Positions 244-40,847 of a DNA stretch of 53,881 nt are shown here, one piece after another; position 1 is the stretch's first letter; each line of letters opens with the position of its first letter. The position numbers and the translations under genes are program-made. The notes beneath the pieces are model-generated. The model was given only the letters and a program-made list of their open reading frames with translations. It was not told the origin of the DNA and did not search any database. This stretch comes from a virus (taxonomy: Duplodnaviria; Caudoviricetes), in the IMG/VR virus record IMGVR_UViG_3300000502_000002, positions 1-53,881 of that record. The stretch is one strand, 5' to 3'.

Positions 244-564
244 TCAAACCGCCTTCGGCTTGTAACCGGTTGTCTTTTTCAGCAATTCAGCCTTTTCAAC
301 AAGCGCGCGGATTTCGGTCTCAATTGCCTCGGTGCTATGATTATCATCCAGCTCTTCGACCAAGTGATCAGCCGCCCAAAAAAGAAAGCCGGGCCACCGC
401 CAGGTAAAAGGGAATTTTTTAATCCTCCGGCGCGCCTTCTCCCACCCCATCCTTGCACTCAAGGTCATGCGATAGTTGCCACCGGCAAGAATGGTGTTCA
501 GCGAAGCACTCAGCCATAGCCGGATATTGATTAAGTAGTCTTTCAGCTTCTTTGCAAAAATCAC
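244..564 (-). CDS. Conserved phage hypothetical protein (lysis-cassette neighbour)
   Basis: 106-aa ORF overlapping the holin stop. N.IL.GG...TLSAR.G and NH..AIE pattern resembles a common small phage protein. Confidence 0.65.
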   Translation of the reverse strand: MIFAKKLKDYLINIRLWLSASLNTILAGGNYRMTLSARMGWEKARRRIKKFPFTWRWPGFLFWAADHLVEELDDNHSTEAIETEIRALVEKAELLKKTTGYKPKAV

Positions 565-1076
565 GATTTCAACCCTCCTTTAATATTTTCGGTGCTGGTT
601 CCATTTTTCTTATCCCAGCTTCTCATTAACCCAATCCCGAGCATCGATCCAAGAAGACCAAAAATATCGGCCATCCCAAAGTCAGGGAACGCAGGAAGAA
701 CGATATTGGCTACCTCCGTTATCACATGGGCGGAGCTTGCCACGACCTTGAGAATTAATACGCACTGCCATGTCCATACCACGGTAAGGACAATTGCTTT
801 GGGGATGAATGCCAGGGCTAGGATAGTAGTACAGACCCACCCAATAGCAGGCCTCCACCCGGCGACAAAGAGACTTTTGCTTTGGGCCTCGGCCTTGTTA
901 ACTTCAAGTTGACCAAGGATAACCTGCACATGGAGTTGAAGCTTTTCAAGATCGCCATGCTGCCGCAGCTCTTCAAGCTTGCGGATCTCTTCTGCGCGTT
1001 TGTTGGCATCTGGCCAGATTCTTTCAATGACCGACTGCCCAAGATTGAAAGCCGCCGTTAGTGGATCAACGCTCAT
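561..1076 (-). CDS. Holin of the 3-TM (GTA-type) family
   Basis: GWRPAIGWVC motif, hydrophobic segments, C-terminal GLMRSWDKK; adjacent to the endolysin; SD AGGAGAG. Confidence 0.85.
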   Translation of the reverse strand: MSVDPLTAAFNLGQSVIERIWPDANKRAEEIRKLEELRQHGDLEKLQLHVQVILGQLEVNKAEAQSKSLFVAGWRPAIGWVCTTILALAFIPKAIVLTVVWTWQCVLILKVVASSAHVITEVANIVLPAFPDFGMADIFGLLGSMLGIGLMRSWDKKNGTSTENIKGGLKS

Positions 1077-1108
1077 GGGTTAACTCTCTCCTGCTGTTTT
1101 GTTCCGGG

Positions 1109-1687
1109 TTAACTTCTAGCGAGCCAACCAGAAAGGAACTCTTTTTGAGTTGGATCTTTTTGTGCAATCCTGCGGTAAAGGGCCTCGGCAAAACTCTCAG
1201 CCCTGTCGCGTAAAACCTTCGGGTCTTTGGCCGTATTGATTGCATTGATCGATATTGGGCCAATCAATCCATCAGGCTTTACGCCAGCAGCTCGCTGAAT
1301 CCAGCGTGCGGGTTTCCGGTAATTACCGAAATGGACATGTTTTTCAAAAAGCCAATTTGATACAACCTGCGGAGCAATTGAATTGTATTCAGGTCGCCAA
1401 AAATTCGCCTCGTAGAAATCCATCACCATTTCCCTGAGCTTGGTGTCAGCCAAAAGAATCCGATCAAGAAGCTTGCGCCACATATCGGCCTGCCTCTTGT
1501 TGCCCTGTGGTTGAGGCCCGATCTTTGCCTTAACGGCGTCAATAATTTTCCAGCCATGCCATTGAGGCCAGTAGTTTCGAGCTATCCCAGAATACGACTC
1601 TCCGCCATGGTCATGCTTATTGAATACCCATCCGCCCTCAATGACCATTAGTGAGGGAATGGCATTAATAAAACTAGCCACCGGCAC
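1109..1687 (-). CDS. Endolysin, glycoside hydrolase family 108 with peptidoglycan-binding C-terminus
   Basis: EGG...D.GG..GI N-terminal motif (IEGGWVFNKHDHGGESYSGI), DG.IGP motif, C-terminal F..GWL.R. Confidence 0.9.
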   Translation of the reverse strand: MPVASFINAIPSLMVIEGGWVFNKHDHGGESYSGIARNYWPQWHGWKIIDAVKAKIGPQPQGNKRQADMWRKLLDRILLADTKLREMVMDFYEANFWRPEYNSIAPQVVSNWLFEKHVHFGNYRKPARWIQRAAGVKPDGLIGPISINAINTAKDPKVLRDRAESFAEALYRRIAQKDPTQKEFLSGWLARS

Positions 1688-1943
1688 CTCCTTTCCTCCA
1701 AGTTTCTAATCCAATTTTCACGATATATCCAAAGCCTCCTAAAACAGCGAGGACAACGGCCGTCCCAACAATTGCGACGGTTTTATTCCATGCGCCAATA
1801 AACCTCTTCACAAGAAAAAAGTCAGACTCTGTCAGGTTGCATTTCCGAGCAACCGGGCAAATAGTATGAGCATCGTCAAGAAAGTGCTCTTGAATAGCCT
1901 CCTTGACGATGCTCTTTAACTCTTCCTTTGTATCTGCTCCCAC
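1674..1943 (-). CDS. Small membrane protein of the lysis cassette
   Basis: 89 aa with one C-terminal TM segment; overlaps the endolysin start. Confidence 0.65.
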   Translation of the reverse strand: MGADTKEELKSIVKEAIQEHFLDDAHTICPVARKCNLTESDFFLVKRFIGAWNKTVAIVGTAVVLAVLGGFGYIVKIGLETWRKGGAGG

Positions 1944-2031
1944 TGGAATCTCCGAAGTTTAAGTTAGTCTAAACCATACACCAACTTTCATTTGTACCAG
2001 AAGGGCAATTTAATTGTTTTTTCGATCAAAC

Positions 2032-5000
2032 TTAAATATCGTTTTCCTGAGTAAAGCGCGCTGTTTTCTTATCCGGCCGGGAATGCAATGCCTGTTTCAG
2101 AGACCTTATTGGCGAAACCAACGACCTTGCCTGGCTGCTCATCAATTGTGCGTTAAACTCAAGCACAAGCTGGTGGGCCTCCTGCCTCCCTTTGGCGCTG
2201 CCATTCTCGAAAAGCCTTCTGATTTTTGCGTACACCTGAGACTTACGTTCTTGCCAGTAATTCTTCAGTTCATAGCCAACGAACTGAAGGTTTGACTGCT
2301 TCGATTGCTCAAGTGGCTGGAACCCTAAAGACCGCTTGAAAGCGTCGGTTCCATCATATTTCACTTGGCTGCCGTCCTTGCCATAGATCGGCTTTCCGCC
2401 CTTCGTTGTCGCCCCTTCACTCGCCAATCGGTATGCTCGCATCGGCCCAGCCATGAATTCTGGAGCGGCAGACTCAAGCGCTCGGTAATAATCCCCATTG
2501 CTGAAGCTGTCAACCGCATTAAAGCCTTTTTGAATCAGTGCCCCGACCGGACCGGTAGCGCTTTCGGTAACGCTATCCCCAGAAATAAAGTTGCTAAGAA
2601 TCGGAACCCTGACCGCCAGTGAATTGCTAATATTCAATCCGACTGTTGAAGGTAGACCATAGAAGATGAAATCGACTGCGGCGTCACCAGGGTCTCCGTA
2701 TTCGCTTGCGTGCTTGTGCATCCAACTTTCGAATTCCAGCCTGTAGTCTTTGCCCGTTATTTTCCGAACCAGCTTGTCAATATCGTCGGCCCCAGGAACT
2801 GCACCGATACCGCCAAGAACAGCGATTGCAGCAATGGCTCGACCAAGGGCAATGACCTGATCGCGCTCGCCACTTGTGGCCCTGTTATACATCCAGTTCA
2901 GAGAGTTGAATGCAAATGACTGAAGGGTGTATACGGTCCTCCCGGCCCAATTCCTTGCCCACTTTGGAAGATTGGCTTTGCCCGGAATAAAATGGACCGT
3001 ATAGACGAACTCAGAAGCTTTATCGAACGCATCCTGGTGGAATGGGTGTTCGGCTGTCGGTTTAAACCCTTGTGGCTGAAACGACCGATACGCTGCCAGA
3101 AATGCAGCCTCCCTATTGATGCGCTCAATAGCCTGGAACGGAGCCATCGTGAATTTGAGTGCTCGCTGTAAATTTTTATCCATAAAGGTGCCGGGGTTTC
3201 GGTCTTCAGCAATCATATCGCCAATTACAGTTTCGTGGACAAGGCCTTGCCGTAAGGCAGTCCAAAGCGCTGCCCGTTCTGACTTTGTTATCTTTTCGGT
3301 TAACCTCCCCTCCCGGCTAGCTGCATAATCAGACAATAGATCAGCGTGGGCTTTGGTCATTACTCGACCGGCACTCTTCGTATACCGGCTAAGCTCAGCT
3401 TGTCCGAAAGTCATGTTCTGGGTTGCGTTAACAACAGCCGAACTCATTTTAAGCCCAAGGAACCATAGAGTAGCAACACCCCTTGCTCTTGCGCTGATAC
3501 GATCTGCGTAACCGGAGTTTGCAAGAGAGTCCTTAACGTAGCTGAATGCCCACTCTTTTGCCTCTGGCTTTGTCTGATTAAGGTTGTGCATTTGCCGAAT
3601 TGCGTAACGCGACTTCGTAACGTAGCCACTTGCGCCCCGGATATATTGGTCAAGCGTCCCATAAACGTCGGAAGTATTATATCCTTCGATAAGATTTGCC
3701 TTCCTCCGGATTTGATGCCGGCCTGCTCCACGAGAAAGTATAGCGTCCGCAGTTTCACGCATCAGCGCGTTGCTGATTTCCTCGAACAACTCAGCGTTAA
3801 TCCCGACCTTCCCGTTAGCGCCATTGATTGCCTTTTGAATGAGCTGCTGAGTCGCAATATCACCGGTAATTGAGCCATACATTTCCTCTGATAACTTATT
3901 GACAATGGTCGGCTCCGGGAACGAATAACTTGCCGCTTCTTTGAAGTTAACAGGCATAAATTCTTTTGGGTTCTCCATCAGTTTCTTGCGAAGCTCTCTT
4001 GCTGCTGCCTTTGAATTGACCATCTGCATAAAGACTTCGCGCCCATCCGAGCCATCCTCATTTTTTTCGTTGACGGATACGCGATAAACGCCATCTTCAC
4101 GGATACGTGGGAACCAGCCATTTATATTGCCTACCTGGCTCTTTAGATCGCGCAGAGCTTTCCTGGACTCAACAAGATTTCTAGCCGCTCTTTTAACGCG
4201 CCGCTCGATGATTTTGTTTTCCATAACCGTCTTCAATGCCTGCCGAAGATCCTCGTCAATATTCTTGTCTTTGACAGTCGTTTGCCAATCGTTTCTTGCG
4301 TCCTTGTCTGTCAGAATCTCGACAAGGGTGTTGAACCATGGCTTATTCTGGTATTCAGGGAATATTAACTTCAGCCCCTGCATATCCATATAAGCCTTAT
4401 AGACATCACTCTCGATTTCAGAAAAATCCATTGCCTCTCTCGAACTCAGCATTTTTCTCAGTCGGGACTTGATCTCAGGCTTATGGTTGTACCGCTCAAG
4501 AGCATTCTCCATTAACTCATTGATCAGCTTCCCACGCAGACCACCGATAAATCCCCTCAGTTCCTTGTAATGCTTAAATGCTGCTTCATCCACATTTCTG
4601 AGCCGCGCATACCTTCTTGCATCATCAATCGTATCGTAGACCACCCCGAAGGCGTCGCCCTCGACAATGAGCTTTTGAACCATTTTTCTTTGCACCGCCG
4701 TTAGGTTGCGGAAGTCTTTTCTTAAATCCTGAAGCGTTCTTTTTTTCCCGTCCCGGGTCTCATATTCCATGAATGACGCTTTGGTCTTTGCGTTATCTTC
4801 CTGGCGCCGTATTTGTTCTTTGACAAAAACCCTGAGCAGTGGATTTTTCTCAGCCTGAAACAGCGGTGTCGCAATTATGTTTCCAATCAAGGTCTTGAGC
4901 CGTTCGTGCATCCTATCTGCAGCAAAGTCATGGATCGCCTTCCCGGCTGCGTACCCATTCAGTTTTGAGTTAACCCGGCGGGTCGTCTCTCTCGTTACCT

Positions 5001-8000
5001 TCTCGGAACCGTTTTTCATTGACTCTCTGGTGGCGGCATCGCTTTCCGATTGCTTCTGTTCAAAGCTAACGCTTCCGCGCTCCTCCTTTAGTTTCCGCCT
5101 AACGAAATCAAATACCTTGATCATCATGTCGCGGAATACTTCATAGGAGCTGCCAAGAAGCTCTTCCATTTTTGCCGTAAAGCTGGCAAGGCTATCGTGG
5201 CCTCCCTTGAGAAGATGCAGACCAAGATCGACCAGCTTCGGGAAGGCTGCTGCAGTATTGCGTTTCAGCTTCACAATCTCCTGAACAAGGGCGTCTACAG
5301 GAATCCCGGAGTTAAGAGTGGTTGTCTTTTCGCCTGACTTGCTTTGGATCGATCCGCGCCCAGCGGCAAACTCCGAGGAGACGCCAAAGGACATTTGGTG
5401 TTCACTGCCGAAGATATCGAGAACGCGGCCAAGGTTTTCGGCGTTGACGTTGGCAACCGCACTTCCCTGAACCTTCCTGTAGTCCCTGGCAAAAAGTGCC
5501 TGCATTTCGTCCGTATAGTATTTTTCCCGAGACCTCTTATCCCCAGGCACCCGAACGGTAGCCTCTCCATTGTAGTGATCATAGGAGATAGAAACCCCAG
5601 GAATGTTGGCGTTAACGGTCGATACCCGCGAGCTTCCAATTTTGGTCTTGAGGTAAGAAAGCGCTGCATCAGCAGTGACAAACGTTGTCTTTCCAAGATT
5701 TTCGGAGGACTCGCCTTTTGGCACAAGGATTCCTTGCCGCGTGTCTCCGTCTTCTGTTGTGAAGTTGACTATTTGGCCTCGGGTTTGTTGGTATCCATAA
5801 AGCAGGTTTCCAGTAACGACACGGACTTTCTCGCGATCCTTTTTCGGTGTGGCCCGGTCCCATCCTTCTGATGAAAACCCGTAGTTTTTCAGTCTTGTCG
5901 CTCTGAGTTGCGTGTCTCTCGACATCGGCAGGGAAATGGTCTGCATTGAGTCAGCAACTGCAAATTCAAGCTCGAAGCGAGAAAGTGCAACCGGGTTCGT
6001 CCCGCGCTTGAACCTCATCCCGGTTAAGACGGCAAGGGGGTTGTACCCCTCTTCAATGTTGACCTCGTAAGTACCGCCAATAACCAGATCGTCGTATTGC
6101 GAGTTAACTCCTTTCAGCGCGTTTCTGATAACCGACGCCGGGTAGGTGATAAGTCTTGAAATGGTGCGTTCCAATTGTTCTGGTTCAAGGTCTGCCTTAT
6201 CCTCTCTTACCTTCGCTTCGTAATCGGCTTCCATTCGATCAAGCTGGCTTATCAGTCCGGCATTATACTGGTCTCTGGTTCTCCCATCGAGGGCCTTGCG
6301 CACCAGCTCTTTGACCTTTTCGGAGTTGTATGGCTTCCTCAGTACGTTAACCTCAAGCGTCTCAAGGTAAGCGCTTGCTGCGAATGGATTGCCCTCGTCA
6401 GCCCCCTGGTGGATAGTGACCGATTCAAGCGTTTTTGCCCGATAGTCAAGATTGCTTGACTTCAGATCGTTCTGCCCGGTCCGGTCAAGATAATCCATCA
6501 AGTCTGAATATTCCTGCTCAACCTCTTCATAAAACTCACGTTGGGCCCTAGACGGTAAGATGGCGATCTTCCCAGAAACCCTCTGGAATAGGCCCTCTGC
6601 GCTGGTGTCGATATCAAGTAATTCGGAAATGTCAGGGTGATTAGCCAGGAACTCCCGTGTTACCGCATCTCCATGGCGGTTCATCATATCGTCGGTTGAG
6701 CGAGTTGAGGAAACGACAGATTCATCGTTTGCGCTGGTGTTGGCATTAAGGCTTGCCATTTTTTTCTGGCGGATAACATTCGGCCGAATTTCTGCTGGGA
6801 GAGATGTCGACGGGAAAATGTATCCCGGCAAAAGAGTCTTCCCGTTATCGTCGGCTACGAGTTGCCCCTTCCTATTGGATCGGCCCATCCCCTGCATCAT
6901 GGTGTTGATGTTCGGGTCAGGCTGAACCATCAGCATTATTCTTCGGCGACGATCGGTCCCTGTCTTCGGCGAGTTATGAAGCGACAGCCCGGTCGATCCG
7001 GCAGAGTTAAAAATAAGGGCGTCTGTCCTTTTATTGTTGAAGTCGATGACAGACTTATTCTTCTCTCCTTTTCTGATTTTTCTCGGCTCAATGGCGATAA
7101 GGTTTTTCTTGCCGTTAGTAAAGTCGTAACGAACGGCATATTTCCTTCCGGTGATTTCACCGACGTTGCAACCCTCATCTCTCATCCGCGCCGCAATATA
7201 GTCAATCGGAGATAGCGGCAGGTCAAGGTCAAGCCTCTCGATCTGGGCCTTGATGCCATAATAAATATCTTGAGCCTCTGGAGTTAACTGCTCAACTGGG
7301 ATAATTGACCTTGTTGAGTTCCCGTAGGGGTCTGTCACTCTAATTCTGCGCGTCCCTTCAAGGGCCTTATCGAGAACAGTAGAAAAGTCGGCGCTGACTG
7401 CTTCACCAAGAGAATACCCGCTCGCATCAATAAAATGCTCAAGCGTTGATTCCATGGTGTTCGTCAAATTAATAATCGGCTTTTCGCCTCTCTTGAAAAT
7501 TTCGATTGCCCTGTCCGCGGTCATATCGGCTTTCAGGGCTAGAAGGAGCTGCGAAACGATATTGTGGACAATTGACGAAAAATTGGTGCTGGTAACACCG
7601 GCAGACGTTGATTCTTCACCGGTGACGGCCATGCCGTTTTCCTGTGCATCTTGGTTCATATTGTCGACCGATTTAGACTTCAGCTTGTCAAACTGGACGA
7701 TTCGGCGCAGGATGGCCGTAACCTGGTCGGCTCGTTGTTCATCTCTTGCGGCGTTGGTGGTATCAGTCTCATAGGCAATACTAATGCCATCCCAGCTCGA
7801 TTCTCGCCGGATCATCTGCCCGGACTCGGCAAGTAATGACGCTATGGCTTGTTGCAGTGGAACCCCGCCGCGAGCCATAGCATCGATAAGCCCTTGCCTG
7901 CTTAGACCAGACGAGCCGATAGCCGTTCTGAAATAAATCGGGATGTTGTCGGGTCGCTTGGCGAACGTGGCCGACAGGTACAGAACACCGGCCGCATCTT

Positions 8001-11000
8001 GAAGTGCCGCAGAAAACACCTTTCCTCGGTTGGAGTCTCCTGCCGCCTCATGCGCTTCGTCCATGACGACAATATTGTCTACTGATAGCTGTGTGAGGAT
8101 TTGGCTTTGCAGCTTCTTCATACCCTCTTGGACCTGAGAATATGACGTAAAAACAACACCATAACCATGATCTTTAAACCATTGCTTAACGTTCCCACTA
8201 TCAAGGATCTCTTGGTATAGGGAGCTATCGCCATGCCTTTTTATTAAAACTTCTCCGCTCCCGTCCACAATATCCGAGTCGGGGTTGCTGTGCATGATAA
8301 AGGGTTTCATGTCGCCATACCCGATATCGTTCAGGTCTCCCCACATGTCAGTAAACAGTTTTGGTAAAGCGGTGGTAAAAACAGGGACATGTTCATTCAG
8401 GTTTGCATACCGGATAATGGCCGCTGCCGAACGCCCCTTGCCGACCCCTGTTTGGTCGCCAATGATAATAGCTTCGCCTTTATCTATCGCATCTACGGCA
8501 AGGGCAACGGCGTCTATCTGTTCGGCGGAAAGAGCTTTCCATAAGTCGTTTACGCTCCCGTACTGAAGTTTTTCAGTGAGGTAGTCGTCGACCGTCTTCC
8601 CTGTTTCGTCCTCAAGGGATTCAAGCGCCCCTTTAACCTTCTTCTCCATGTTAACGGGAATAAGGTTTCCGCCAGGTTCGCGGTTTGATTGTGGAGAGTA
8701 TGGAGCTTGGAATTTATTCCTCTTTGGCATTGCAGCCTTATTCGGCTTGCCATTTCTACTGGGGACTTTCTCCGGAGAGCTTTCTGTTTTTACTTTTGCA
8801 GCGTCTCTGGTTGCTGATTCTGACACTGCGCCGTTGATATCTGTTGCGTCAACTGCCGCGTCATTATCCATTCCAGAGAACTGGTCTCCGTAATTTGAAC
8901 TGATCGCCTTATACCAGCCCTTCAGGTGCGGCTTAACTCCTTCACCAAAGGCTTCAACCATTGTCTTTGCAAAGTCTGAAAACTTGCGGATACCCTTTTC
9001 GATGTGGTATCCGGCAATTTGTATCCCGGCAGAAAGTAGTTCCGGGTCGAACCCGGAGTTAACCTGCGATAGTTTTTTGCGCAAGATAGCTGCAGCTTTG
9101 TCTGCGGCCTCTTGCGTGAAGATTTTATTCTGCTCGCCTCCGGTTAATCGAGACTTCCCAGACCCGACGGGTTTAGAGCCGACAGAAGAAATGACAGAAG
9201 ATCCACGTCTTCTATCGGCAGCTTCGCCATTTCGTTCACTGCGCGCTCCACTCCCTCCGGATCCGCCGTCTCCTGCGTCTGAACTACTGTCAGCACTTCC
9301 TCGGCTATTGCGGACGGAGACATTGCGCTCATGTTCCCGCTTAGATGCAATCTCGGCTCTCGCAGCTGTATCTCCCGCATCATCTGCGCTATCGTTTCGA
9401 GCCCCTCTTTCTTGGCCATCTCTTGATACTCCGTCATTATCCGAGACAGTTGGTTCTCTGTTTTCATGCTGATTGACATAGGTCTTCCCTCCTTCTGTCT
9501 TGAGAATATCATAAAGTCTATCGAAGGTGTCTGCGGTTTCGACCTGGCCGCTTCTTGCCGGGGCGAACTCTTTGTCAGGAATGGACTTGCGACCGTCGAC
9601 AGCAATAACCCTGATATCGAAAGAAGTCCCTTGGCGGCGATATAAATCGCCATTAACATCAACGTTATGGGCAACGTTATAGTGGCTGTATAGCCAGTTA
9701 AAAAACATCCGGTCAGGCTCAGACATGCGGCCTTTCCCGTTGAAGTTATGTCCGCCAATGATAAATGCTGCTTTCCCGTCGTTGGTCATTTGCTCAAGGG
9801 ATTTTGCGACAATCAAATGCTCTAACTTGCTGATCGGAAAACCATCAATTTTAACAGGCTTGATACTTCCGAAGGGGGGGTTTGCAATAATCCGCTCCGC
9901 CTTCGGCAGACCATAATCGGACAAATTAAGATCGGTTGCGTCGGTATTAAAAACGTTGCCTTCCGGAACGCCATTATCCTTGAAGAATGCTTTCAGGTTG
10001 TCGAGCCTCGCACCGCTGTCTAGCTCATTTACAATAACGGAATCGAGGTCTTCTGCTCCAGAAATTAGCGCACCATTCCCGGCAGTCGGCTCATAGATAA
10101 GCATCCCGCCATTTTCATCGATACCAAGCCAATGCTGCATTAACGCGGCTATCGGAGACGGAGTAGAATACTGCTGCTTGCTCATTGACTTGCCGGTCCG
10201 CATCAAGAGGTTTGGCTGTCTCTTATACAATCTCTTGATCTTCTCGAACTTTGCGTCGAATGAACCCGGACCTCGCATGACCTCTCGGGCCTTCTTGACA
10301 ACCGCCAGTTCCATGGCCTCTTCAACAGCCTTGTGGTCATAATCTCCGGAATCGTTAAGTTCAGAAACCTTTTTCCCCCACAGGTCGGCCAGAGCCTTCT
10401 TTACTTGAAATTTGTCAAGGCTTGCCACATCTCTGTCTAAACTCCCGATCATCTCGCCAAATCTCTTCGACAAGCCAACCGTATTCACCTTGCTGGGTGT
10501 TCCGTGGTCAACATCGGCCTCTACTACCGCTCCCTTTTCTGCGGTTGCGGTTGCCGCAGCCATGGGAATTGCGGCTGCACTTCTGACTGCGTTCTGGGTT
10601 GCACGCTCCGCAACATCTTCAGTGGTGGCAGCGTTTTCTGATTCGGCTGTCGTCACGTTAACTTCAGACCTTAGCGGCTTGCCTTGATCTCCTCTACCTA
10701 ACCAGTCCTTAAGCCCGTCAATTGAAGTCTCGGTAATGGCCCCAGCACGTTGTGGGCCTGATCCATCACTAAACCCGCCATCGTAGATTTTTTTGGCTTC
10801 GCCTAGCGAGTTTGCCCCAATAATTACTTTATGTTCGTCAAAAGCTCCGGTATCCGGATCGACCTGATCGACAATGAAGGCCTTTTCACTCTGGGGATGT
10901 TCACCAATGTAAACATCGACTTGATCGCCATCAGCCCCTTCAGTCCTCTTAAAATAGCCATAGTGGGCAGGCATCTCGACAGACCACGCTTCACCATTAG

Positions 11001-12570
11001 GATCGACGCCAGAACGTTTTCCGCCTTTCGGGTTCTCAATTGCAATATCGAGTCCGTGAATTTTAACGTGGCCCTTTTTGTAGTTTCCGGCTTCTTGCTG
11101 TGCTTGCGTTGGCTGCGGCAACTTATTTTTGCTGGAAGTCGCGGCTCTATTGGCCTCGCCGTCAATAACTTTCTTAGACATAGCAATGTCTTCGTCGGTC
11201 ATCTCAAGAGCCTTCTCCTGGGACTCTTTTTGCTGGATACCAGAGTTAATAAGTGAATTCATATCCTCCCTGGTAAAAGCGGTCCCTCCTGGAGTTACAT
11301 TGATTGCCGGAGCTGGCAAAGATTGATAGTTCCCGCGCATCTCTATCGGTTCAGAGCTACCACCAAGGTTAACGGTACTCCCATACTGCGGAGAGCCACC
11401 GACTCCTGAAGAGTTGTGCTGCTCGATCTGGAGCGCGCCACCGATACTGTAAACCGGCAAAACTGCCTCCCTGGGCGTCGGCTTATCGTTGACAACTTCA
11501 GCGTCATAAATGGGAACGTTCGGCTCGGGAAGGGCAAGGGGAGTCCGGCGATTCCCTTCGGCATCATTTGCGCCACCGGTCAGGTCGACATCGTTGACTT
11601 CACCACCCTTGCTAAACATTCCTGCGCCACCGCCGATAACAGCACCGCCAAGGCCGCCAATAACACCAGCGTTAAGCGCCTCTATCTGCCCTTCCTTGCT
11701 GAATGGATCTTTGTAGGCTCCGGCCAATTCAAAAAGAGTCTGGGCGTATTCCGTTCCCCCCTCAATTCCGCCTTGCTTTACAGCCTCTTTTATTCCCCGA
11801 GTCAGAAAATTACGGCCTTCTTCCGTCCTGAAAATTGGAATCTCCTGAAGGGTCTTGAAGATGGGAATCTTTGACATGATTCGCATCTCCGGGATAACGT
11901 CAAGCGCCGCCGCAGGGGCCGCATAGAGTGCGGCCCTTGCGGGGTTCTCAATACCTTGATCGTTCTGGTCAGCATAGATAGAGCCAAGCTCCATCCCGTA
12001 GGAACCGGCAGCCGCACCTGCGACAGCACCGCGAGTGATAGCCTTTTCCGCCATCTCTTTAGTTAACTGTTTCGCGAGCACTTTTGCTCCAACCCGGCTG
12101 GCCCCACCGGCCGCTATTGCTCCTGCACCGCCTGACGCAACAGTACCGGCCATCATCGGGACGAGCGATCCGATTCCATGAGCTGCATACTTTGTGAAAT
12201 CCGAAAAGCTGTCGATATCACTCAGGCTACCAACGTCTGCGGCATAAGACCTGGCTTTTTCTGCCCAATATCCAAGGGAGTCTTCACCTAATCTGGAAAT
12301 TGTTTTGGAGCCGGCAAGGTCGCCTGCGAACTTTGTTGCGCCACCAGTAATAACGCCAAGTTCAAGGACCCCCTCTGCAATACCGCGCCCAAATTCCTCA
12401 ATTGGGTTGTGATCTTCCGGCTCTTCAATAGGGTCTACTCCGGCTCTTGCCTGTCTAATATCTGCACTTGACAGCTTGTACGGTTCCGATGGCTCCTGCT
12501 CTCTCTGTTGATCAAGGCCTAGAACTGAGTATGCGTTCTGGATATCGTTAAACGAAATTTCGTCTTCCAT
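2032..12570 (-). CDS. Giant polyvalent (DarB-like) virion/ejection protein with pyrophosphatase-like, N6-adenine DNA methyltransferase and Strawberry-notch-type SF2 helicase domains
   Basis: 3512 aa. IENPKG...HYGY...GADGD.VDV...FDEHKV (about 11120-10700); EPTAGNG (about 10073-10093) and NPPF (9871-9882); GDQTGVGKGR (8431-8460), DEAH (8050-8061), SATFA, GSTGLSLH, QGMGRSNRKGQ. Confidence 0.88.
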   Translation of the reverse strand: MEDEISFNDIQNAYSVLGLDQQREQEPSEPYKLSSADIRQARAGVDPIEEPEDHNPIEEFGRGIAEGVLELGVITGGATKFAGDLAGSKTISRLGEDSLGYWAEKARSYAADVGSLSDIDSFSDFTKYAAHGIGSLVPMMAGTVASGGAGAIAAGGASRVGAKVLAKQLTKEMAEKAITRGAVAGAAAGSYGMELGSIYADQNDQGIENPARAALYAAPAAALDVIPEMRIMSKIPIFKTLQEIPIFRTEEGRNFLTRGIKEAVKQGGIEGGTEYAQTLFELAGAYKDPFSKEGQIEALNAGVIGGLGGAVIGGGAGMFSKGGEVNDVDLTGGANDAEGNRRTPLALPEPNVPIYDAEVVNDKPTPREAVLPVYSIGGALQIEQHNSSGVGGSPQYGSTVNLGGSSEPIEMRGNYQSLPAPAINVTPGGTAFTREDMNSLINSGIQQKESQEKALEMTDEDIAMSKKVIDGEANRAATSSKNKLPQPTQAQQEAGNYKKGHVKIHGLDIAIENPKGGKRSGVDPNGEAWSVEMPAHYGYFKRTEGADGDQVDVYIGEHPQSEKAFIVDQVDPDTGAFDEHKVIIGANSLGEAKKIYDGGFSDGSGPQRAGAITETSIDGLKDWLGRGDQGKPLRSEVNVTTAESENAATTEDVAERATQNAVRSAAAIPMAAATATAEKGAVVEADVDHGTPSKVNTVGLSKRFGEMIGSLDRDVASLDKFQVKKALADLWGKKVSELNDSGDYDHKAVEEAMELAVVKKAREVMRGPGSFDAKFEKIKRLYKRQPNLLMRTGKSMSKQQYSTPSPIAALMQHWLGIDENGGMLIYEPTAGNGALISGAEDLDSVIVNELDSGARLDNLKAFFKDNGVPEGNVFNTDATDLNLSDYGLPKAERIIANPPFGSIKPVKIDGFPISKLEHLIVAKSLEQMTNDGKAAFIIGGHNFNGKGRMSEPDRMFFNWLYSHYNVAHNVDVNGDLYRRQGTSFDIRVIAVDGRKSIPDKEFAPARSGQVETADTFDRLYDILKTEGGKTYVNQHENREPTVSDNDGVSRDGQERGARNDSADDAGDTAARAEIASKREHERNVSVRNSRGSADSSSDAGDGGSGGSGARSERNGEAADRRRGSSVISSVGSKPVGSGKSRLTGGEQNKIFTQEAADKAAAILRKKLSQVNSGFDPELLSAGIQIAGYHIEKGIRKFSDFAKTMVEAFGEGVKPHLKGWYKAISSNYGDQFSGMDNDAAVDATDINGAVSESATRDAAKVKTESSPEKVPSRNGKPNKAAMPKRNKFQAPYSPQSNREPGGNLIPVNMEKKVKGALESLEDETGKTVDDYLTEKLQYGSVNDLWKALSAEQIDAVALAVDAIDKGEAIIIGDQTGVGKGRSAAAIIRYANLNEHVPVFTTALPKLFTDMWGDLNDIGYGDMKPFIMHSNPDSDIVDGSGEVLIKRHGDSSLYQEILDSGNVKQWFKDHGYGVVFTSYSQVQEGMKKLQSQILTQLSVDNIVVMDEAHEAAGDSNRGKVFSAALQDAAGVLYLSATFAKRPDNIPIYFRTAIGSSGLSRQGLIDAMARGGVPLQQAIASLLAESGQMIRRESSWDGISIAYETDTTNAARDEQRADQVTAILRRIVQFDKLKSKSVDNMNQDAQENGMAVTGEESTSAGVTSTNFSSIVHNIVSQLLLALKADMTADRAIEIFKRGEKPIINLTNTMESTLEHFIDASGYSLGEAVSADFSTVLDKALEGTRRIRVTDPYGNSTRSIIPVEQLTPEAQDIYYGIKAQIERLDLDLPLSPIDYIAARMRDEGCNVGEITGRKYAVRYDFTNGKKNLIAIEPRKIRKGEKNKSVIDFNNKRTDALIFNSAGSTGLSLHNSPKTGTDRRRRIMLMVQPDPNINTMMQGMGRSNRKGQLVADDNGKTLLPGYIFPSTSLPAEIRPNVIRQKKMASLNANTSANDESVVSSTRSTDDMMNRHGDAVTREFLANHPDISELLDIDTSAEGLFQRVSGKIAILPSRAQREFYEEVEQEYSDLMDYLDRTGQNDLKSSNLDYRAKTLESVTIHQGADEGNPFAASAYLETLEVNVLRKPYNSEKVKELVRKALDGRTRDQYNAGLISQLDRMEADYEAKVREDKADLEPEQLERTISRLITYPASVIRNALKGVNSQYDDLVIGGTYEVNIEEGYNPLAVLTGMRFKRGTNPVALSRFELEFAVADSMQTISLPMSRDTQLRATRLKNYGFSSEGWDRATPKKDREKVRVVTGNLLYGYQQTRGQIVNFTTEDGDTRQGILVPKGESSENLGKTTFVTADAALSYLKTKIGSSRVSTVNANIPGVSISYDHYNGEATVRVPGDKRSREKYYTDEMQALFARDYRKVQGSAVANVNAENLGRVLDIFGSEHQMSFGVSSEFAAGRGSIQSKSGEKTTTLNSGIPVDALVQEIVKLKRNTAAAFPKLVDLGLHLLKGGHDSLASFTAKMEELLGSSYEVFRDMMIKVFDFVRRKLKEERGSVSFEQKQSESDAATRESMKNGSEKVTRETTRRVNSKLNGYAAGKAIHDFAADRMHERLKTLIGNIIATPLFQAEKNPLLRVFVKEQIRRQEDNAKTKASFMEYETRDGKKRTLQDLRKDFRNLTAVQRKMVQKLIVEGDAFGVVYDTIDDARRYARLRNVDEAAFKHYKELRGFIGGLRGKLINELMENALERYNHKPEIKSRLRKMLSSREAMDFSEIESDVYKAYMDMQGLKLIFPEYQNKPWFNTLVEILTDKDARNDWQTTVKDKNIDEDLRQALKTVMENKIIERRVKRAARNLVESRKALRDLKSQVGNINGWFPRIREDGVYRVSVNEKNEDGSDGREVFMQMVNSKAAARELRKKLMENPKEFMPVNFKEAASYSFPEPTIVNKLSEEMYGSITGDIATQQLIQKAINGANGKVGINAELFEEISNALMRETADAILSRGAGRHQIRRKANLIEGYNTSDVYGTLDQYIRGASGYVTKSRYAIRQMHNLNQTKPEAKEWAFSYVKDSLANSGYADRISARARGVATLWFLGLKMSSAVVNATQNMTFGQAELSRYTKSAGRVMTKAHADLLSDYAASREGRLTEKITKSERAALWTALRQGLVHETVIGDMIAEDRNPGTFMDKNLQRALKFTMAPFQAIERINREAAFLAAYRSFQPQGFKPTAEHPFHQDAFDKASEFVYTVHFIPGKANLPKWARNWAGRTVYTLQSFAFNSLNWMYNRATSGERDQVIALGRAIAAIAVLGGIGAVPGADDIDKLVRKITGKDYRLEFESWMHKHASEYGDPGDAAVDFIFYGLPSTVGLNISNSLAVRVPILSNFISGDSVTESATGPVGALIQKGFNAVDSFSNGDYYRALESAAPEFMAGPMRAYRLASEGATTKGGKPIYGKDGSQVKYDGTDAFKRSLGFQPLEQSKQSNLQFVGYELKNYWQERKSQVYAKIRRLFENGSAKGRQEAHQLVLEFNAQLMSSQARSLVSPIRSLKQALHSRPDKKTARFTQENDI

Positions 12571-12598
12571 ATCTACTATTCAATCCATCCGTTAAGAG

Positions 12599-14023
12599 TT
12601 AAAGAGGTGAAGAGATACCGGCATAGTCAGTTGCCATTTGCGAATAACGCTGCTCGGTGTTTTTGTTCGATGAAAGCGGAAGAGCAGGCTTGTCTTTGTC
12701 GTGGCCATTTGATGACGACTTTTTCACTGGTTTCCTTCTCGCATCGGCAACAGCTGCAAGGCTCTCGGCCTTTTCTTTGGGCAGGCGGCGAATAATCTCC
12801 CTTCTCATTGCGGGAGAAAGCTGTTGCAGTTTTATGGTTGCCTGTCCGTCTGGTAGGTTTCCGACTTCATTTGTAATGCTTACAAGCGCCTCTTCTCTTG
12901 CTTGGTTCTGCTCGGTAAGAAGTTGATGCCCGATCATTGCGTCTTCAATGTTGTACTCGCGCATGAACTTCTCAAGCTGTTGCATCCCATTCCGGTCATA
13001 ATCGAGGGCGCCGGTTGGATATCCGTAAGAATCCACCTGAGGGGAGCTGTAGTGAATCTTCGCAACCGTGTCCCAATTTTTAAATTTTGCCTGCCCAGAT
13101 CCTTTTCCATTCCCGTTAGGCATATAGCTATCGTGTTGGTTATTCTTCTTGAATTTCTCAACCGCGATAGCTTGATTCGTATTGTTGCGAGCCTTCAAGT
13201 TTTCAAGGTCGATTGCTTGCCTCCGCTTCTGGGCGGCAGCCATATTGGCAAGGTCTCGGTCGGCAATAGAAGTGTCGCCAAGCTGGATTAACTTTGCCTT
13301 CGCATCAGCGATAGCAGTTTGGAGACGTTTCGCGTTATCACTGTAGTCGTTCCCTTCACCGACTCCGTTTTTATCGAATGAATCAATGATGATCTCGCGC
13401 CGGAGTGAATCATCAAGGAGTTGGTCAATGCTGACCTTCTTGACTTCATTGTCTCCCTCGTCTTCAGTTCCACGGTTGGCTGTCATGGGGGCCTTCACCA
13501 CTTTCCCGTCCTTGCCCGTATATTCAAGCTCGAAAGCAAATTCCCCATTCGCCCCAGGAATAGGGTATGCCCCTACAATTCTCTTATTGGTTCCACCAGC
13601 CCCTTTGTTTATCTGCGAGGCGTGGATTGAGTTGAGATAATTCAGAAAAAACTTATCGTCCATTTTCCCGGCCTGCATTCTCTGGTGGGCCTGGGTAATG
13701 AGTGACTTATCTTGCCGCCTCTTTGCCGGGTTAATGTACTCGGCTGCGGGGAGGCCGATGTCGCCAGCAACACCGTCCTGCAGCTGCCTAAGCTGCTGTT
13801 CCATCTGGTAGATATTGGCCTTTGTGCTTCTAGCATCGGCTATTCGTTGCCGCTCGCTGAGCTGATAACTTCTATCATCACGGTAATTTTGGCGTTGCTC
13901 TCCCTGCCAGTCCACTTCGCGCTGATGGTCTTGTTCGGCGATATCGTCAAGGCGGTTCTGGCGCTCAATGTTATTAACCATGGAATAGGCCTGAAGGCCC
14001 GACAATATTGGGTTTCCTGTCAC
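12599..14023 (-). CDS. Putative internal virion (DNA ejection) protein
   Basis: 474 aa, helical and charged; directly upstream of the giant protein in the virion operon. Confidence 0.6.
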   Translation of the reverse strand: MTGNPILSGLQAYSMVNNIERQNRLDDIAEQDHQREVDWQGEQRQNYRDDRSYQLSERQRIADARSTKANIYQMEQQLRQLQDGVAGDIGLPAAEYINPAKRRQDKSLITQAHQRMQAGKMDDKFFLNYLNSIHASQINKGAGGTNKRIVGAYPIPGANGEFAFELEYTGKDGKVVKAPMTANRGTEDEGDNEVKKVSIDQLLDDSLRREIIIDSFDKNGVGEGNDYSDNAKRLQTAIADAKAKLIQLGDTSIADRDLANMAAAQKRRQAIDLENLKARNNTNQAIAVEKFKKNNQHDSYMPNGNGKGSGQAKFKNWDTVAKIHYSSPQVDSYGYPTGALDYDRNGMQQLEKFMREYNIEDAMIGHQLLTEQNQAREEALVSITNEVGNLPDGQATIKLQQLSPAMRREIIRRLPKEKAESLAAVADARRKPVKKSSSNGHDKDKPALPLSSNKNTEQRYSQMATDYAGISSPL

Positions 14024-14037
14024 GTTACCTCCCCCTA

Positions 14038-14295
14038 TTAAAAAACTTCGCTAAGAAGGAGCCCGGCACCCGCTCCAATTACTGCTCCCCATGGACCACC
14101 AACGCTCCCGTATTGTGCTCCGATCATCGCGCCCGTCATCGCACCTGAAGCTGTCATGCTTGCCTTCTGGTTGCTCTCTGCCTCTTCCATGGCTTTCTTT
14201 TCCCGCTCCTGTTGCAATTCAAGCTCTGCCGCCTTTGCGTACCCGACGTTAGCGCCAACCCGATATCCGTTGCCCATATTCAGCACACCAGCCAT
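14038..14295 (-). CDS. Glycine-zipper small virion/ejection protein
   Basis: C-terminal GAMTGAMIGAQYGSVGGPWGAVIGAGAGLLL; lies in the ejection-gene cluster. Confidence 0.65.
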   Translation of the reverse strand: MAGVLNMGNGYRVGANVGYAKAAELELQQEREKKAMEEAESNQKASMTASGAMTGAMIGAQYGSVGGPWGAVIGAGAGLLLSEVF

Positions 14296-14298
14296 GAT

Positions 14299-14901
14299 TT
14301 AACTTCCTAGCCCGAATTGATTAGTGAGGTTCGGATCGCTACCAAGCGCAATGGCCCTGTTTCGATCAACGTAGTTTGTTGCTATTCGATTTGCAGCCCC
14401 TACCAACGCCTTCGTCCTTTCTATATCTGCAAGCCTTGAGTTTGCATTTGTCGCCCGCTCAGAAACGTTAATGCCATACCCGGCCTGCCTGACTTGCTGC
14501 GCCTGGTCCGCCGCATCCATAAACGAGTTAACGTTGTCTGCTCCCTCTTGTTGGGCGATATCCAATACTCCTGGGTTGTTATAGGTCGCCTCATTCATTA
14601 CGTTATCTTCCATAGGCTGGACAGAGCGCTTGAAATCTTCCCACTGGTCCCTGGTTATTCTCGCCCAGATATCAGAGGCCTTCCCTGAAGTGCCGATTGC
14701 TTGCGTACTTGGAGCGATTCCAGCTGGGTCAAGAACCTTTCTGCCCCCCTTTGTTTGGTAAAGAGAGTAGTTTAGACCTCCGCCAAACCCGCCATCGTTT
14801 GTAGCGTCCGCTATAGCACCTATGTTGGTCGGGTCATCAACTATCGTGTCATATAGATGCTTCGTTGATTTGAATGGATTTAGATGACTTAGGAACCCCA
14901 T
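14299..14901 (-). CDS. Putative internal virion protein
   Basis: 200 aa, tightly packed in the operon, A/N/Q-rich helical C-half. Confidence 0.6.
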   Translation of the reverse strand: MGFLSHLNPFKSTKHLYDTIVDDPTNIGAIADATNDGGFGGGLNYSLYQTKGGRKVLDPAGIAPSTQAIGTSGKASDIWARITRDQWEDFKRSVQPMEDNVMNEATYNNPGVLDIAQQEGADNVNSFMDAADQAQQVRQAGYGINVSERATNANSRLADIERTKALVGAANRIATNYVDRNRAIALGSDPNLTNQFGLGS

Positions 14902-14916
14902 AAAGCTGCCTTAATG

Positions 14917-15450
14917 CTATTTGTTTTTGTAGAAAGCAAGCCCAGCACCAACCGCCGTACCCACCGAATCTCCATAGGCTCTCTTAGTTGTCTCATCGGC
15001 AAGAACGTCACTGTACTGGCTCTTGACCGCGTCAGAAGCAAGGCTTCCATAATTAAAAGTTGCGTCAGCAGATTCACCGTTACCGATATCTATAGCGGCC
15101 TTTTGGGCGGCCATTGACTGATCTCTAACCCCCTGCTCTGCGCTGGTTGTTGCTCTTGACCCAAGCGCTCCGACCTGCAACGCATTTTTATTTGAAACGG
15201 ATGATCCCGTTGACGGGTCTACACCAACAGGGATAGCTCCTTGGTTGGCCTTTGCAATCTCCGTCCGCACCTGACCGGCAACTCTGTCTTCCTGGTCCGT
15301 CGTTTCTCGCGTTACATCAGCGATAAATTTATTCCTAAAAGGGGTGTATACGGTCTTGAAGCGGTTATATTTCTCGGCAGCAACCCTTGCGTTCTCAACC
15401 TGCTGAGAGGTTTCTTTGACTCCTTCACCGCCGCTCTTTCCGCATCCCAT
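14917..15450 (-). CDS. Putative internal virion protein with N-terminus MGCGKSGG
   Basis: 177 aa, SD GGAGG, C-terminal Gly/Ala hydrophobic tail. Confidence 0.65.
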   Translation of the reverse strand: MGCGKSGGEGVKETSQQVENARVAAEKYNRFKTVYTPFRNKFIADVTRETTDQEDRVAGQVRTEIAKANQGAIPVGVDPSTGSSVSNKNALQVGALGSRATTSAEQGVRDQSMAAQKAAIDIGNGESADATFNYGSLASDAVKSQYSDVLADETTKRAYGDSVGTAVGAGLAFYKNK

Positions 15451-15466
15451 TGTTGGCCTCCAACAT

Positions 15467-15955
15467 TCACATTGACTCTCTTCTTAATTTTTCTATCACT
15501 AGACTCTTCTGGTAATGTCCTAGCCCTTCGTCGTGCACGAACGCCCTCACCCTAGAAGCAAATTCAATTGCATACTCCTCACCATAAATAATCCACGCAG
15601 TCATCATGAAAATGTCTGCGTAGGAAGACCTAATAACGAATGAGTATTCGTAGGCCTCCTGTGCCTCTTGTCTCTCTATCTCAGTCGCAAGTTTCCAGTT
15701 GCCTATCGCCACCATCATCAATGGATGCAACGATGAAATGTTTGACATATAAAACTTATTTGTCGGAAGACCGATAAGAATTGACTCGAAGGCTCTGCTT
15801 ATATCTTTGTTTTCAACCTTGACATCTCTGTCGCACAGATCGTCCCAGACTGCAGAGACATTGACAATTGTCGAAAGGAATTCGGCAGCGTCCTTATCTT
15901 TTTTTGCTATCTCATTGATAGGGTCATCGATCGTTTTAAACGGTTCACAGGACAT
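15467..15955 (-). CDS. Helical protein with DDxxD motif (possible isoprenoid-synthase-like fold)
   Basis: VWDDLCDRD motif in a predicted all-helical 162-aa ORF. The function is inferred only. Confidence 0.6.
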   Translation of the reverse strand: MSCEPFKTIDDPINEIAKKDKDAAEFLSTIVNVSAVWDDLCDRDVKVENKDISRAFESILIGLPTNKFYMSNISSLHPLMMVAIGNWKLATEIERQEAQEAYEYSFVIRSSYADIFMMTAWIIYGEEYAIEFASRVRAFVHDEGLGHYQKSLVIEKLRRESM

Positions 15956-16085
15956 TTATTTTGCCTTAACTTCACAATTGAATTGCTTTTAATGGCGCAA
16001 AAACCTTCCCATTATTTACCATATAGAGGGGTCTTTGCGCCACCCGAACCAAAGCTATATTTCTGTGGGCACTTACTGCCACACG

Positions 16086-16742
16086 TCACTCAACGTTAAC
16101 ATCAAACGAGATTGCAATTGACTTGACCTCTTCCGTTGTTTTAGCCCCCTTGATCTCCTTCTCAAGTTGGCTTTTGTGCTGCCAGTAGGATAATGCGTCT
16201 GCCCCTTGCTTCAGTCGAATCTCATTGGCATCTGCAATTGGCACGGGGCTAGTCCCGTCGTCAACTCCATGCCTAACGTTATAAAAATCCTTAACCTCTG
16301 CCATATATTCCATGCCACTACCAGTCGCAAACATATACCCGAAAGCCATTCTTGTTGCGGCAGTTTCTCCAGCATTCATCCTGATTGTGCCACTGTTTGT
16401 AGTCGGGCAATCAACGTAGATATCCTTCCCGGATACTGGATCGGCCCCGGACGAAACAATCTTGTAAATAGCCGAAAGCTGCGTGAGGGCCTTTTCCTTG
16501 AATTCATCGATAGAAGATGTTCTTTCAATAATACTCGTCTCGTCGTTGGAAACCTTCATCCCTTTAATTGCGGCTGGGCTTATCGTTGGCTCAACAACAA
16601 TAACCCCATGGGTCTCTGCACTCAGTCCCCGCCGTGCAAGCGCCCGATCACCCATCTCAAGGGTAACCTTTAGTGTTTCGGAGTCACGCTGACTCCACAG
16701 AATATTCCCAGATGCTCGTGCGTAAAGTGCTACAGTTGCCAT
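16086..16742 (-). CDS. Tail-fibre-associated protein (DUF4376-like C-terminus)
   Basis: Immediately downstream of the tail fibre; C-terminal K..L...I..A.T.EEV..I pattern. Confidence 0.65.
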   Translation of the reverse strand: MATVALYARASGNILWSQRDSETLKVTLEMGDRALARRGLSAETHGVIVVEPTISPAAIKGMKVSNDETSIIERTSSIDEFKEKALTQLSAIYKIVSSGADPVSGKDIYVDCPTTNSGTIRMNAGETAATRMAFGYMFATGSGMEYMAEVKDFYNVRHGVDDGTSPVPIADANEIRLKQGADALSYWQHKSQLEKEIKGAKTTEEVKSIAISFDVNVE

Positions 16743-16745
16743 GGA

Positions 16746-34140: not shown

Positions 34141-34777
34141 TTTCTAGCCCGTTAACGCCATCGACAATCTCGTAGTAATCTTCCTTCGGAATGTCGATTG
34201 GGAGATCCTTTGTTCCGCCTTCAATCGTCAGCTCAAGCAATCGCTGCTCGAAAGTAATTTCCTCAATCTCAACCTTCTTCGGAGCGCGTGAACCAGTGAT
34301 ATCGAGGGCGGTCTCAAGATATTTGTGCCGAACATCATGATCAGGCACCATTTCGATATCCTGCCCTTTTTTCACTGGCCGCTCGGCCTTAAGGCCAGAG
34401 GCGATTATTTTTGCGAGTTCTTTCTCGGTGATTTGCTCATCAGCAAGAGCCTGAATAAGTGCGCTATTTCTATCCTTATGCTTGTCTATCACCTGTCGAG
34501 CCACCCGCGCTGCCGAACCTTGCGTCGTCACGTTGTAGCCTGCCTCAACGGCTGAATCGGCCAAGGTCATGTTTTTCAGAAACCGGTTTTTTAACAGTGC
34601 TATTTCCCGCTGTGTCGCCTCACCTGAAATCGATTCAGAGAGTGCCGTCCCTTTTTTTCTGCCACCGACGTTAACGCCCTTTTGTCCGCTCTTCGGGAGA
34701 GCGAGCCGTTTCTGTGACTTCGGAGCCGTACCGTTTCGAGCCCTTTTCGCGCCATCTTGATTTTTTCTATTCGCCAT
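34103..34777 (-). CDS. terS: Terminase small subunit
   Basis: SA..AGY helix-turn-helix pattern; overlaps the terL start. Confidence 0.7.
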   Translation of the reverse strand: MANRKNQDGAKRARNGTAPKSQKRLALPKSGQKGVNVGGRKKGTALSESISGEATQREIALLKNRFLKNMTLADSAVEAGYNVTTQGSAARVARQVIDKHKDRNSALIQALADEQITEKELAKIIASGLKAERPVKKGQDIEMVPDHDVRHKYLETALDITGSRAPKKVEIEEITFEQRLLELTIEGGTKDLPIDIPKEDYYEIVDGVNGLENDEDEDDGEWPE

Positions 34778-36070: not shown

Positions 36071-36354
36071 TTCACATTCCCTTCAGCAAAACAGCAGAGA
36101 GTATCGATCAGATCCTTCTCGACACACCCACCGGCCTTAGATGAAATATCAATGAGCTTCATGAACCCTACGATATCCGACATGTCAGTAACGACAAGCC
36201 GCACACTAATCCTTTCAGGAAGTCCGTCATTATCACCCTCAAGGGTTATCCCGCTTCGCTCGCCGCATAGTGGGCAGGCCCAAGTTCTAATCTCCCGAAA
36301 GCCGTCAGTCTCAACGTCTGGAGCAAGGTTGGCTGAACATCGAAAACATTTCAT
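36058..36354 (-). CDS. Zinc-ribbon protein
   Basis: CFRC...CPLCG; start overlaps the upstream stop (ATGA). Confidence 0.6.
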   Translation of the reverse strand: MKCFRCSANLAPDVETDGFREIRTWACPLCGERSGITLEGDNDGLPERISVRLVVTDMSDIVGFMKLIDISSKAGGCVEKDLIDTLCCFAEGNVKWVI

Positions 36355-40703: not shown

Positions 40704-40847
40704 ACAACGATCATTAACCACCATAAAAACCAATTCAATTGGACAATTACCGCAATCAAACTATCTACAACATTGACCGCAGCAATCATGACGAACGGTC
40801 TGGCTCTGTATGAATTTGCTGCGCTACCAACCAAAGGAGATCATCGA

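Follow-up and report, generated by a model that had tools for sequence, protein, structure and literature searches.

The virus sequence record IMGVR_UViG_3300000502_000002 (Caudoviricetes), analysed here as one window of 53,881 bp with an estimated completeness of 92%, encodes on its minus strand a protein of 3512 amino acids, hereafter the giant, which is real and intact and belongs, as a divergent member, to the known class of polyvalent proteins. A family I pyrophosphatase-like domain (InPase), an N6-adenine DNA methyltransferase (MTase) and a Strawberry-notch-type (Sno) superfamily 2 (SF2) ATPase are joined in one polypeptide, which is phage-encoded among packaging and virion genes; polyvalent proteins have likewise been described as giant single polypeptides that combine many effector domains and whose genes lie among those for the virion (PMC5512222). 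The giant is likely to be a late product of a temperate phage of the short-tailed type, packed into the capsid and ejected along with the DNA into the host. A preliminary description, made from the sequence alone, had reported the 3512-aa product of this open reading frame (ORF), which was confirmed as uninterrupted from its ATG start, and had called the product a polyprotein. Since no peptidase family was found in any scan (Pfam, PHROG and NCBIfam), nor any other sign of processing, a cleaved polyprotein was rejected and polyvalent protein is the apt term.

The segments of the giant (Table 1) were delimited by BLAST coverage with 100 homologues and 149 further proteins, and catalytic residues were checked in aligned homologous segments, of which there were 67 for the InPase, 72 for the MTase and 71 for each lobe of the ATPase, a position being taken as conserved at 90% or more. 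All catalytic positions conserved at that level in the three domains are also present in the giant, in agreement with the intact motifs reported earlier. The match to the InPase family PF18823 at residues 489–624 (E 6.6e-51) scores 172.1 bits against a cut-off of 26.8 and covers model positions 1–134 of 135. Conserved residues are E512, R519, Y537, D547, D549, D552, D578, E579 and K581, and the five acidic ones from D547 to E579 are putative metal-binding residues, which we take to correspond to residues of the Escherichia coli pyrophosphatase. The InPase domain is apparently active. The only sequence match of the whole protein in the PDB is the C-terminus of gp19, the portal of phage Pa193 (9b41), which aligns with the InPase region and is unmodelled there; portal residues 529–765, including the InPase-like part, are without density (PMC11456595). 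That search yielded no experimentally determined structure of a polyvalent-type InPase. The InPase clade, including its fusions to portal proteins and its mark, the lack of a β-hairpin between strands 1 and 2, was described by Iyer et al. 2017 (PMC5512222), who proposed that the enzyme acts on pyrophosphate (PPi) or on some nucleotide produced as a response to infection, or that removal of PPi aids polymerases. This was the only paper found on phage InPase, and the literature search returned no experimental test of InPase function in phages.

The MTase carries its motifs in the gamma-class order, namely T803-P804 (TP), E827-P828-x-A-G-x-G833 (motif I, ExxxGxG) and N897-P-P-F900 (motif IV, NPPF), and their residues are conserved in at least 90% of the 72 aligned segments. 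A weak co-linear match to the type I HsdM structure 3lkd (E 0.067) spans the TP, motif I and NPPF sites, and the family phrog_10089 'DarB-like antirestriction' matches residues 450–1366 (E 2.2e-83). An EcoKI/TaqI-like adenine MTase with the TP motif, nearly always fused to an SF2 ATPase, has been described with DarB of phage P1 as its archetype (PMC5512222).

Both lobes of the Sno ATPase score above their Pfam cut-offs, the N-lobe PF13872 at residues 1345–1602 with 60.1 bits against 27 and the C-lobe PF13871 at residues 1802–1989 with 46.8 bits against 30.5. Its conserved residues, all found in the giant, are Q1351, G1375..K1378, D1504-E-x-H1507, S-A-T 1533–1535, Q1893, G1896, R1897 and R1900, and the Q motif, Walker A, DExH, motif III and the motif VI arginines are intact. 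The three enzymatic domains named in the preliminary description are all borne out by these matches and motifs. An extension at residues 1990–2390 is conserved among homologues, and residues 1300–2300 are covered by 55–59 of the 100 homologues; a PDB sequence search with the ATPase region found no solved relative. In the published survey of polyvalent proteins 'a few instances' of a Strawberry-notch-like ATPase are noted (PMC5512222). Between the MTase and the ATPase lies an unnamed helical domain that is 35% identical to residues 1258–1397 of gp69 of the Burkholderia phage JC1 (E 2e-18), 40–54% identical to segments of many metagenomic giants and 29% identical to a segment of gp3 of the Bacteroides phage BS-TP4. 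It is the piece most widely shared among otherwise unrelated giants; it has no Pfam or PHROG match, and the ESM Atlas gave no usable match for residues 1135–1260.

The search for homologues in 5.8 billion proteins returned 100 relatives of 1956–6088 residues. About 59 of them have the Sno ATPase in common with the giant, 16 carry PF13872 and PF18823 together, and one, from a Paracoccus genome, bears the NCBI name 'PLxRFG domain-containing protein'. A block with the same cargo is found in BS-TP4 gp3 (5391 aa), in which the InPase is 39%, the MTase 34% and the Sno ATPase, over about 1010 residues, 29% identical to that of the giant; there the helical domain precedes the MTase, whereas it follows the MTase in the giant. 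The gp3 gene (1511–17686) lies directly before the portal gene and is annotated as a hypothetical protein. The preliminary description had singled out the domain combination as notable. Given the 16 homologues, the BS-TP4 gp3 block and the descriptions of Iyer et al. 2017, the pairing of InPase and Sno ATPase is, by sequence comparison, not unusual.

The enzymes are framed by two non-enzymatic modules. About 1300 C-terminal residues had been left unassigned in the preliminary description; some 400 of these form the extension of the Sno ATPase, and some 965 belong to a widespread C-terminal module recognised by the NCBIfam model NF032893 ('tail-700' PLxRFG domain), which matches residues 2842–3478 (window positions 2137–4047) with E 4.1e-48 and 164.3 bits against a cut-off of 100. 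With the last 715 residues as query, an exhaustive search in HMMER reached 2,977 clusters, defined at 50% identity, at E≤1e-3; at E≤1e-30 there were 354. In all 149 matches listed the module stands at the C-terminal end, the high-scoring segment pair ending at most 98 residues from the terminus, and at most 60 in 134 of them. The carriers range from 202 to 6710 residues, and homology among them often extends back to about residue 2545. Because only 56 of these 149 share any other region with the giant, and because the Pfam content of relatives varies, the module is evidently joined to many different cargos. The AlphaFold2 model of this module is all-α, with a mean predicted local distance difference test score (pLDDT) of 73 and a predicted template modelling score (pTM) of 0.62. 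In cultured phages it occurs in Serratia phage Parlo, Klebsiella phages SopranoGao, LASTA, SJM3 and ZX1, Pseudomonas phage Itty13 and Vibrio phage douglas 12A4, in proteins annotated 'DarB-like antirestriction' or 'PLxRFG protein' (12 records). The PLxRFG giants of cultured podophages, compared in the C-terminal module alone, are 23–28% identical to it over 30–66% of its last 670 residues; they too are of giant size, in genomes of about 57–63 kb.

The N-terminal module was found in 11 of the 149 carriers of the C-terminal module, always starting at residues 25–52, and in none of 100 proteins found through the ATPase, two weaker partial matches aside. Residues 40–313 of the giant are 49% identical to residues 28–300 of the protein P0112 by BLAST, and a MAFFT alignment of the module with its relatives was made. 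It matches phrog_6958 'virion structural protein' (E 7.4e-10), and an ESM Atlas search with the N-terminal part returned only unnamed viral clusters. Hydrophobic Gly/Ala-rich stretches near both ends of the protein, which had been noticed earlier, were located at residues 136–154, 296–320 and 3237–3264, the last being the single strongly hydrophobic, transmembrane (TM)-like helix of the giant. BS-TP4 gp3, which shares the cargo, gives no match to the hidden Markov models (HMMs) of either end module. From the end-fixed position of the modules and this separate occurrence of the cargo it follows, as far as sequences can tell, that constant ends form a chassis around a middle of interchangeable enzymes, the cargo. 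Packaging and passage or membrane insertion are the probable tasks of this chassis. The main text of the paper on polyvalent proteins (PMC5512222) contains neither 'PLxRFG' nor 'transmembrane', and may not treat end modules such as those of the giant as a chassis.

The giant gene is the last of a co-oriented late operon, directly before the lysis genes, and the replication module lies on the opposite side of the genome. The same arrangement has been described for JC1, in which gp69, a DarB-like protein of 4515 residues, is encoded by a giant late gene after small virion-associated proteins and before the lysis genes, and was found with 51 unique peptides in CsCl-purified virions (PMC9144972); gp75 of Bcep22, DarB-like and of about 4500 residues, is grouped with it (PMC9144972). 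In addition, the late module of the window encodes a homologue of gp61, the virion-associated 'head closure protein' of JC1 (31% identity, E 8e-59). From the position in the late operon, the mass spectrometry of JC1 gp69, the gp61 homologue, the phrog_6958 match and the fusions of InPase to portal proteins, we infer that the giant is packaged in the virion. A further likeness, drawn from published descriptions, is to the virion RNA polymerase gp50 of coliphage N4, an ejected giant of about 3500 residues with end regions reportedly used in injection and encapsidation and the enzyme in the middle (PMC5512222, PMC13434306); the enzyme and the end regions of gp50 differ from those of the giant. 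Very large putative ejection proteins of some podophages, up to 5007 residues, would need to be at least partly unfolded in order to pass (Casjens et al., PMC8402733).

On this reading, the giant would be synthesised late, enter the capsid and leave it for the host along with the DNA. The end modules would serve in packaging, passage or membrane insertion, the C-terminal one carrying the TM-like helix. The MTase, coupled to the SWI2/SNF2-type Strawberry-notch ATPase, may track along the entering DNA and either methylate it or protect it from restriction, as has been suggested for P1 DarB, and the InPase may remove PPi or a nucleotide-like signal. Tracking with methylation during DNA entry was already proposed for polyvalent proteins by Iyer et al. 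2017 (PMC5512222), and the co-injected, DarB-like function with an InPase acting on PPi or nucleotide signals that the preliminary description suggested is plausible and equals the hypothesis published for the whole class (PMC5512222).

The comparison with P1 DarB (2255 aa) is one of architecture, since pairwise similarity is not significant. In DarB, too, an adenine MTase precedes an SF2 helicase within a single polypeptide; DarB is a protein of the virion head that is believed to enter the cell, protects against restriction in cis and has an N-terminal capsid-targeting signal (PMC9024508). It belongs to a different ATPase clade, has no InPase and, by HMM (3.4 bits), no PLxRFG module, and P1, a myovirus, has accessory Dar proteins (DarA, DdrA, DdrB, Hdf and Ulx).

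Several points weigh against a packaged and ejected DNA-modifying giant. Direct support for packaging or ejection does not exist for the giant or any close relative, and in the publications consulted methylation of the DarB type during DNA entry is still treated as a hypothesis. The best homologues are 36–39% identical over about 31% of the giant and come from uncultured sources; a megablast search of its gene against 50,697 phage records gave no match, and searches of viral contigs with the ATPase region and of genome contigs with the C-terminal module gave pattern matches but no confirmed relative. P1 DarB itself, to which the preliminary description had likened the protein, reaches no better than E 0.15 in BLASTP, with co-linear matches at the level of motifs only. 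With JC1 gp69 only the helical domain, about 90 residues, is clearly shared, and gp69 scores 1.0 bit on the HMM of the C-terminal module, which is no match. Pfam N6_Mtase scores 15.1 bits on the giant, under its gathering score of 20.4, as the MTase has diverged too far for this model, and for the MTase no target-recognition domain could be found in the giant. The C-terminal module has no solved structural relative in PDB fold searches, so its role is deduced from position alone, and the AlphaFold2 model of the N-terminal module (pLDDT 56, pTM 0.36) is unreliable.

A different role in the same virion would be that of an essential DNA-delivery (ejectosome) subunit, a counterpart of the internal virion protein D of phage T7 (gp16), with the C-terminal module in the inner membrane and the enzymes as add-ons. 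This reading shares ground with the favoured one, the difference lying in what the protein is required for; it is rather unlikely. Among the late-operon proteins examined, the giant has the sole strongly hydrophobic helix (residues 3237–3264), the six ORFs upstream having no hydrophobic segment above the threshold. An HMM of 146 C-terminal modules gives T7 gp16 11.8 bits at residues 1099–1156, where 500 shuffles of gp16 reach at most 3.6 bits, and this marginal alignment pairs the hydrophobic helix of the giant with the start of the putative transmembrane helix (TMH) II of gp16, at 1119–1290 (PMC8954989). However, in a wider control, for which ten proteins were shuffled 100 times each, the shuffled forms of P22 gp16 and P22 gp20 reach 10.5 and 8.7 bits, and the hhalign comparison with T7 gp16 extends over 51 columns at 1099–1152 with E 0.014 and a probability of 3%. 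Because the wider control weakens the 11.8-bit match, the link to T7 gp16 is a marginal lead and not a finding. The T7 gp16 homologues among the matches listed are all 94–99% identical to it, for which reason no diverse gp16 profile was built. The fold searches of BFVD match 'internal virion protein D' of the roseophages CRP-4 and CRP-5 (E 2e-6 and 6e-6) and an 'internal core protein' of Yersinia phage ISAO8 (E 2.6e-3), with TM-scores of 0.24–0.40 throughout, but these annotations may themselves rest on nothing more than gene position, and there is no chain of the T7 core or ejectosome among the Foldseek or VIA matches listed. The N-terminal module weakly matches phrog_6651 'internal virion protein' (E 0.004), yet neither end module matches the PHROG families of T7- or P22-type ejection proteins, and P22 gp7, gp20 and gp16 as well as T7 gp14 and gp15 stay at noise level on the end-module HMMs. 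P1 DarB and JC1 gp67, gp68 and gp69 are at noise level there too. Nor did the Pfam scans find a lytic transglycosylase (SLT or lysozyme family) in the giant, a domain that is absent from P22-type gp16 as well. It is conceivable, if somewhat improbable, that the end modules are a delivery chassis descended from or equivalent to a T7 gp16-type ejection protein, in which case the anti-defence enzymes would encounter the DNA where the channel opens into the cytoplasm.

Two readings do without the virion. As an unpackaged late cytoplasmic enzyme, the giant would act before packaging by methylating progeny genomes, and its ATPase and InPase would help in replication or transcription; orphan adenine MTases are common in phages, expression is late as judged by gene position, and the removal of PPi for polymerases is one of the published ideas on the InPase (PMC5512222). 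This is very improbable, since 3,512 residues with two end-fixed non-enzymatic modules go beyond the needs of a soluble modification enzyme, the gene stands among virion genes away from the replication module, and giants of similar design are found in virions (PMC9144972, PMC9024508). Protection of the lysogen by a prophage-carried defence or restriction-modification-like module of type I, type III or BREX style is more improbable still. MTase-helicase pairs do occur in restriction-modification systems (PMC5512222) and the phage is temperate, as its integrase indicates, but PADLOC returned 0 families at E≤1e-3, Pfam scans found no nuclease domain in the giant, the gene lies in the late structural operon and has its orientation, and the family is also present in the virion modules of lytic phages.

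The giant adds one divergent example to a class described in 2017, and the combination of domains itself teaches little. The useful point is the anatomy, that is, constant N-terminal and C-terminal modules carrying swappable cargo, to which a full domain map is added here. The C-terminal module, with its 2,977 clusters, represents one of the larger phage protein families without an assigned fold or function. If it serves as a device for packaging or membrane insertion, this would account for the delivery of enzymes of 400 kDa by podoviruses, and it could offer a means to load capsids with foreign proteins, as has been shown with DarB's N-terminal signal in P1. The ejectosome reading, if true, would bring some 3,000 clusters of 'DarB-like' giants together with the classical ejection proteins.

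Table 1. Segments of the giant protein and other features of the 53,881-bp window.
Feature	Position	Strand	Residues and remarks
Giant ORF	2032..12570	-	3512 aa plus stop; ATG start; uninterrupted
N-terminal module	11596..12453	-	~40-325; helical, Gly/Ala-rich; ends in Gly-zipper-like hydrophobic helix 296-320
InPase	10699..11106	-	489-624; family I pyrophosphatase-like, polyvalent-protein clade; PF18823
Gamma-type N6-adenine DNA MTase core	9628..10215	-	~786-981
Low-complexity Ser/Gly/Arg/Asp-rich linker	9151..9513	-	~1020-1140; from translation; low BLAST coverage by homologues
Unnamed helical domain, ~100 residues	8836..9138	-	~1145-1245; BLAST to JC1 gp69 and other giants
Strawberry-notch-type SF2 ATPase with extension	5401..8538	-	1345-1989, conserved extension to ~2390
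Poorly conserved linker	4939..5400	-	~2391-2544; covered by 0.6-3 of 100 homologues; no PHROG match
C-terminal module	2041..4938	-	~2545-3510; contains NF032893
TM-like helix	2779..2862	-	3237-3264; Kyte-Doolittle 19-residue mean 2.04
Lysis cassette downstream of the giant	561..1943	-	89-aa TM protein, GH108 endolysin with PG_binding_3, holin
89-aa ORF	1674-1943	-	between giant and endolysin
Upstream 474-aa ORF	12599..14023	-	in the place of a virion-associated 510-aa protein of phage JC1
85-aa ORF	14038-14295	-	phrog_594, unknown function
2274-aa tail-fibre-like protein	16746-23570	-	CBM_4_9 at residues 1492-1607
RusA-like resolvase and polynucleotide-kinase/ATPase-like ORF	34767-35638	-	directly upstream of the terminase region
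DUF4406/nucleoside 2-deoxyribosyltransferase-like protein	36351-37049	-	
Candidate nucleotide/DNA-modification cluster	38611-42301	+	
AAA_5 ATPase	38611-39912	+	in the candidate cluster
DUF7192	39894-40703	+	in the candidate cluster
Nmad5	40773-41420	+	in the candidate cluster; 'nucleotide modification associated domain 5'
Integrase	52254-53462		basis for temperate phage

Gene content and family scans of the window proteins gave the layout of a temperate tailed phage. On one side of the genome are the integrase, a Cro/C1-type helix-turn-helix protein, RecT/YqaJ recombination genes, a single-stranded-DNA-binding protein and a DnaB helicase, and on the other a long minus-strand late operon in the order terminase, portal, PHROG major head protein, virion-associated-protein homologue, 2274-aa fibre-like protein, six ORFs and the giant, followed by the lysis cassette. 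Compared with those of cultured phages, the major head protein reaches 36% identity at best, the nearest being Rhizobium phages of the RHph_TM3_14A group. The giant ORF starts 28 nt past the stop codon of the 474-aa ORF and has a G+C content of 0.49–0.52, the same as the rest of the late region. The 474-aa product has no match in Pfam, PHROG or NCBIfam and no similarity to JC1 gp68. The six small to medium-sized ORFs before the giant belong to PHROGs of unknown function or to none, and with no function assigned to them the ejection-gene cluster proposed in the preliminary description is not supported. The 85-aa ORF has a Gly/Ala-rich, glycine-zipper-like C-terminal half that resembles the hydrophobic residues 296–320 of the giant. 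Downstream, the 89-aa ORF has one strong TM helix (residues 53–81) and no family match, and is probably part of the lysis cassette.

The 2274-aa tail-fibre-like protein, which is unusually large for a phage of about 54 kb, contains a carbohydrate-binding domain (CBM_4_9) and has several matches to tail-protein PHROGs. The RusA-like resolvase and the polynucleotide-kinase/ATPase-like ORF lie within the late-strand block. On the plus strand, the AAA_5 ATPase, DUF7192 and Nmad5 genes form a candidate nucleotide or DNA-modification cluster, with which the DUF4406/nucleoside 2-deoxyribosyltransferase-like protein was grouped, and the phage DNA may be modified by a second route besides the methylase of the giant.

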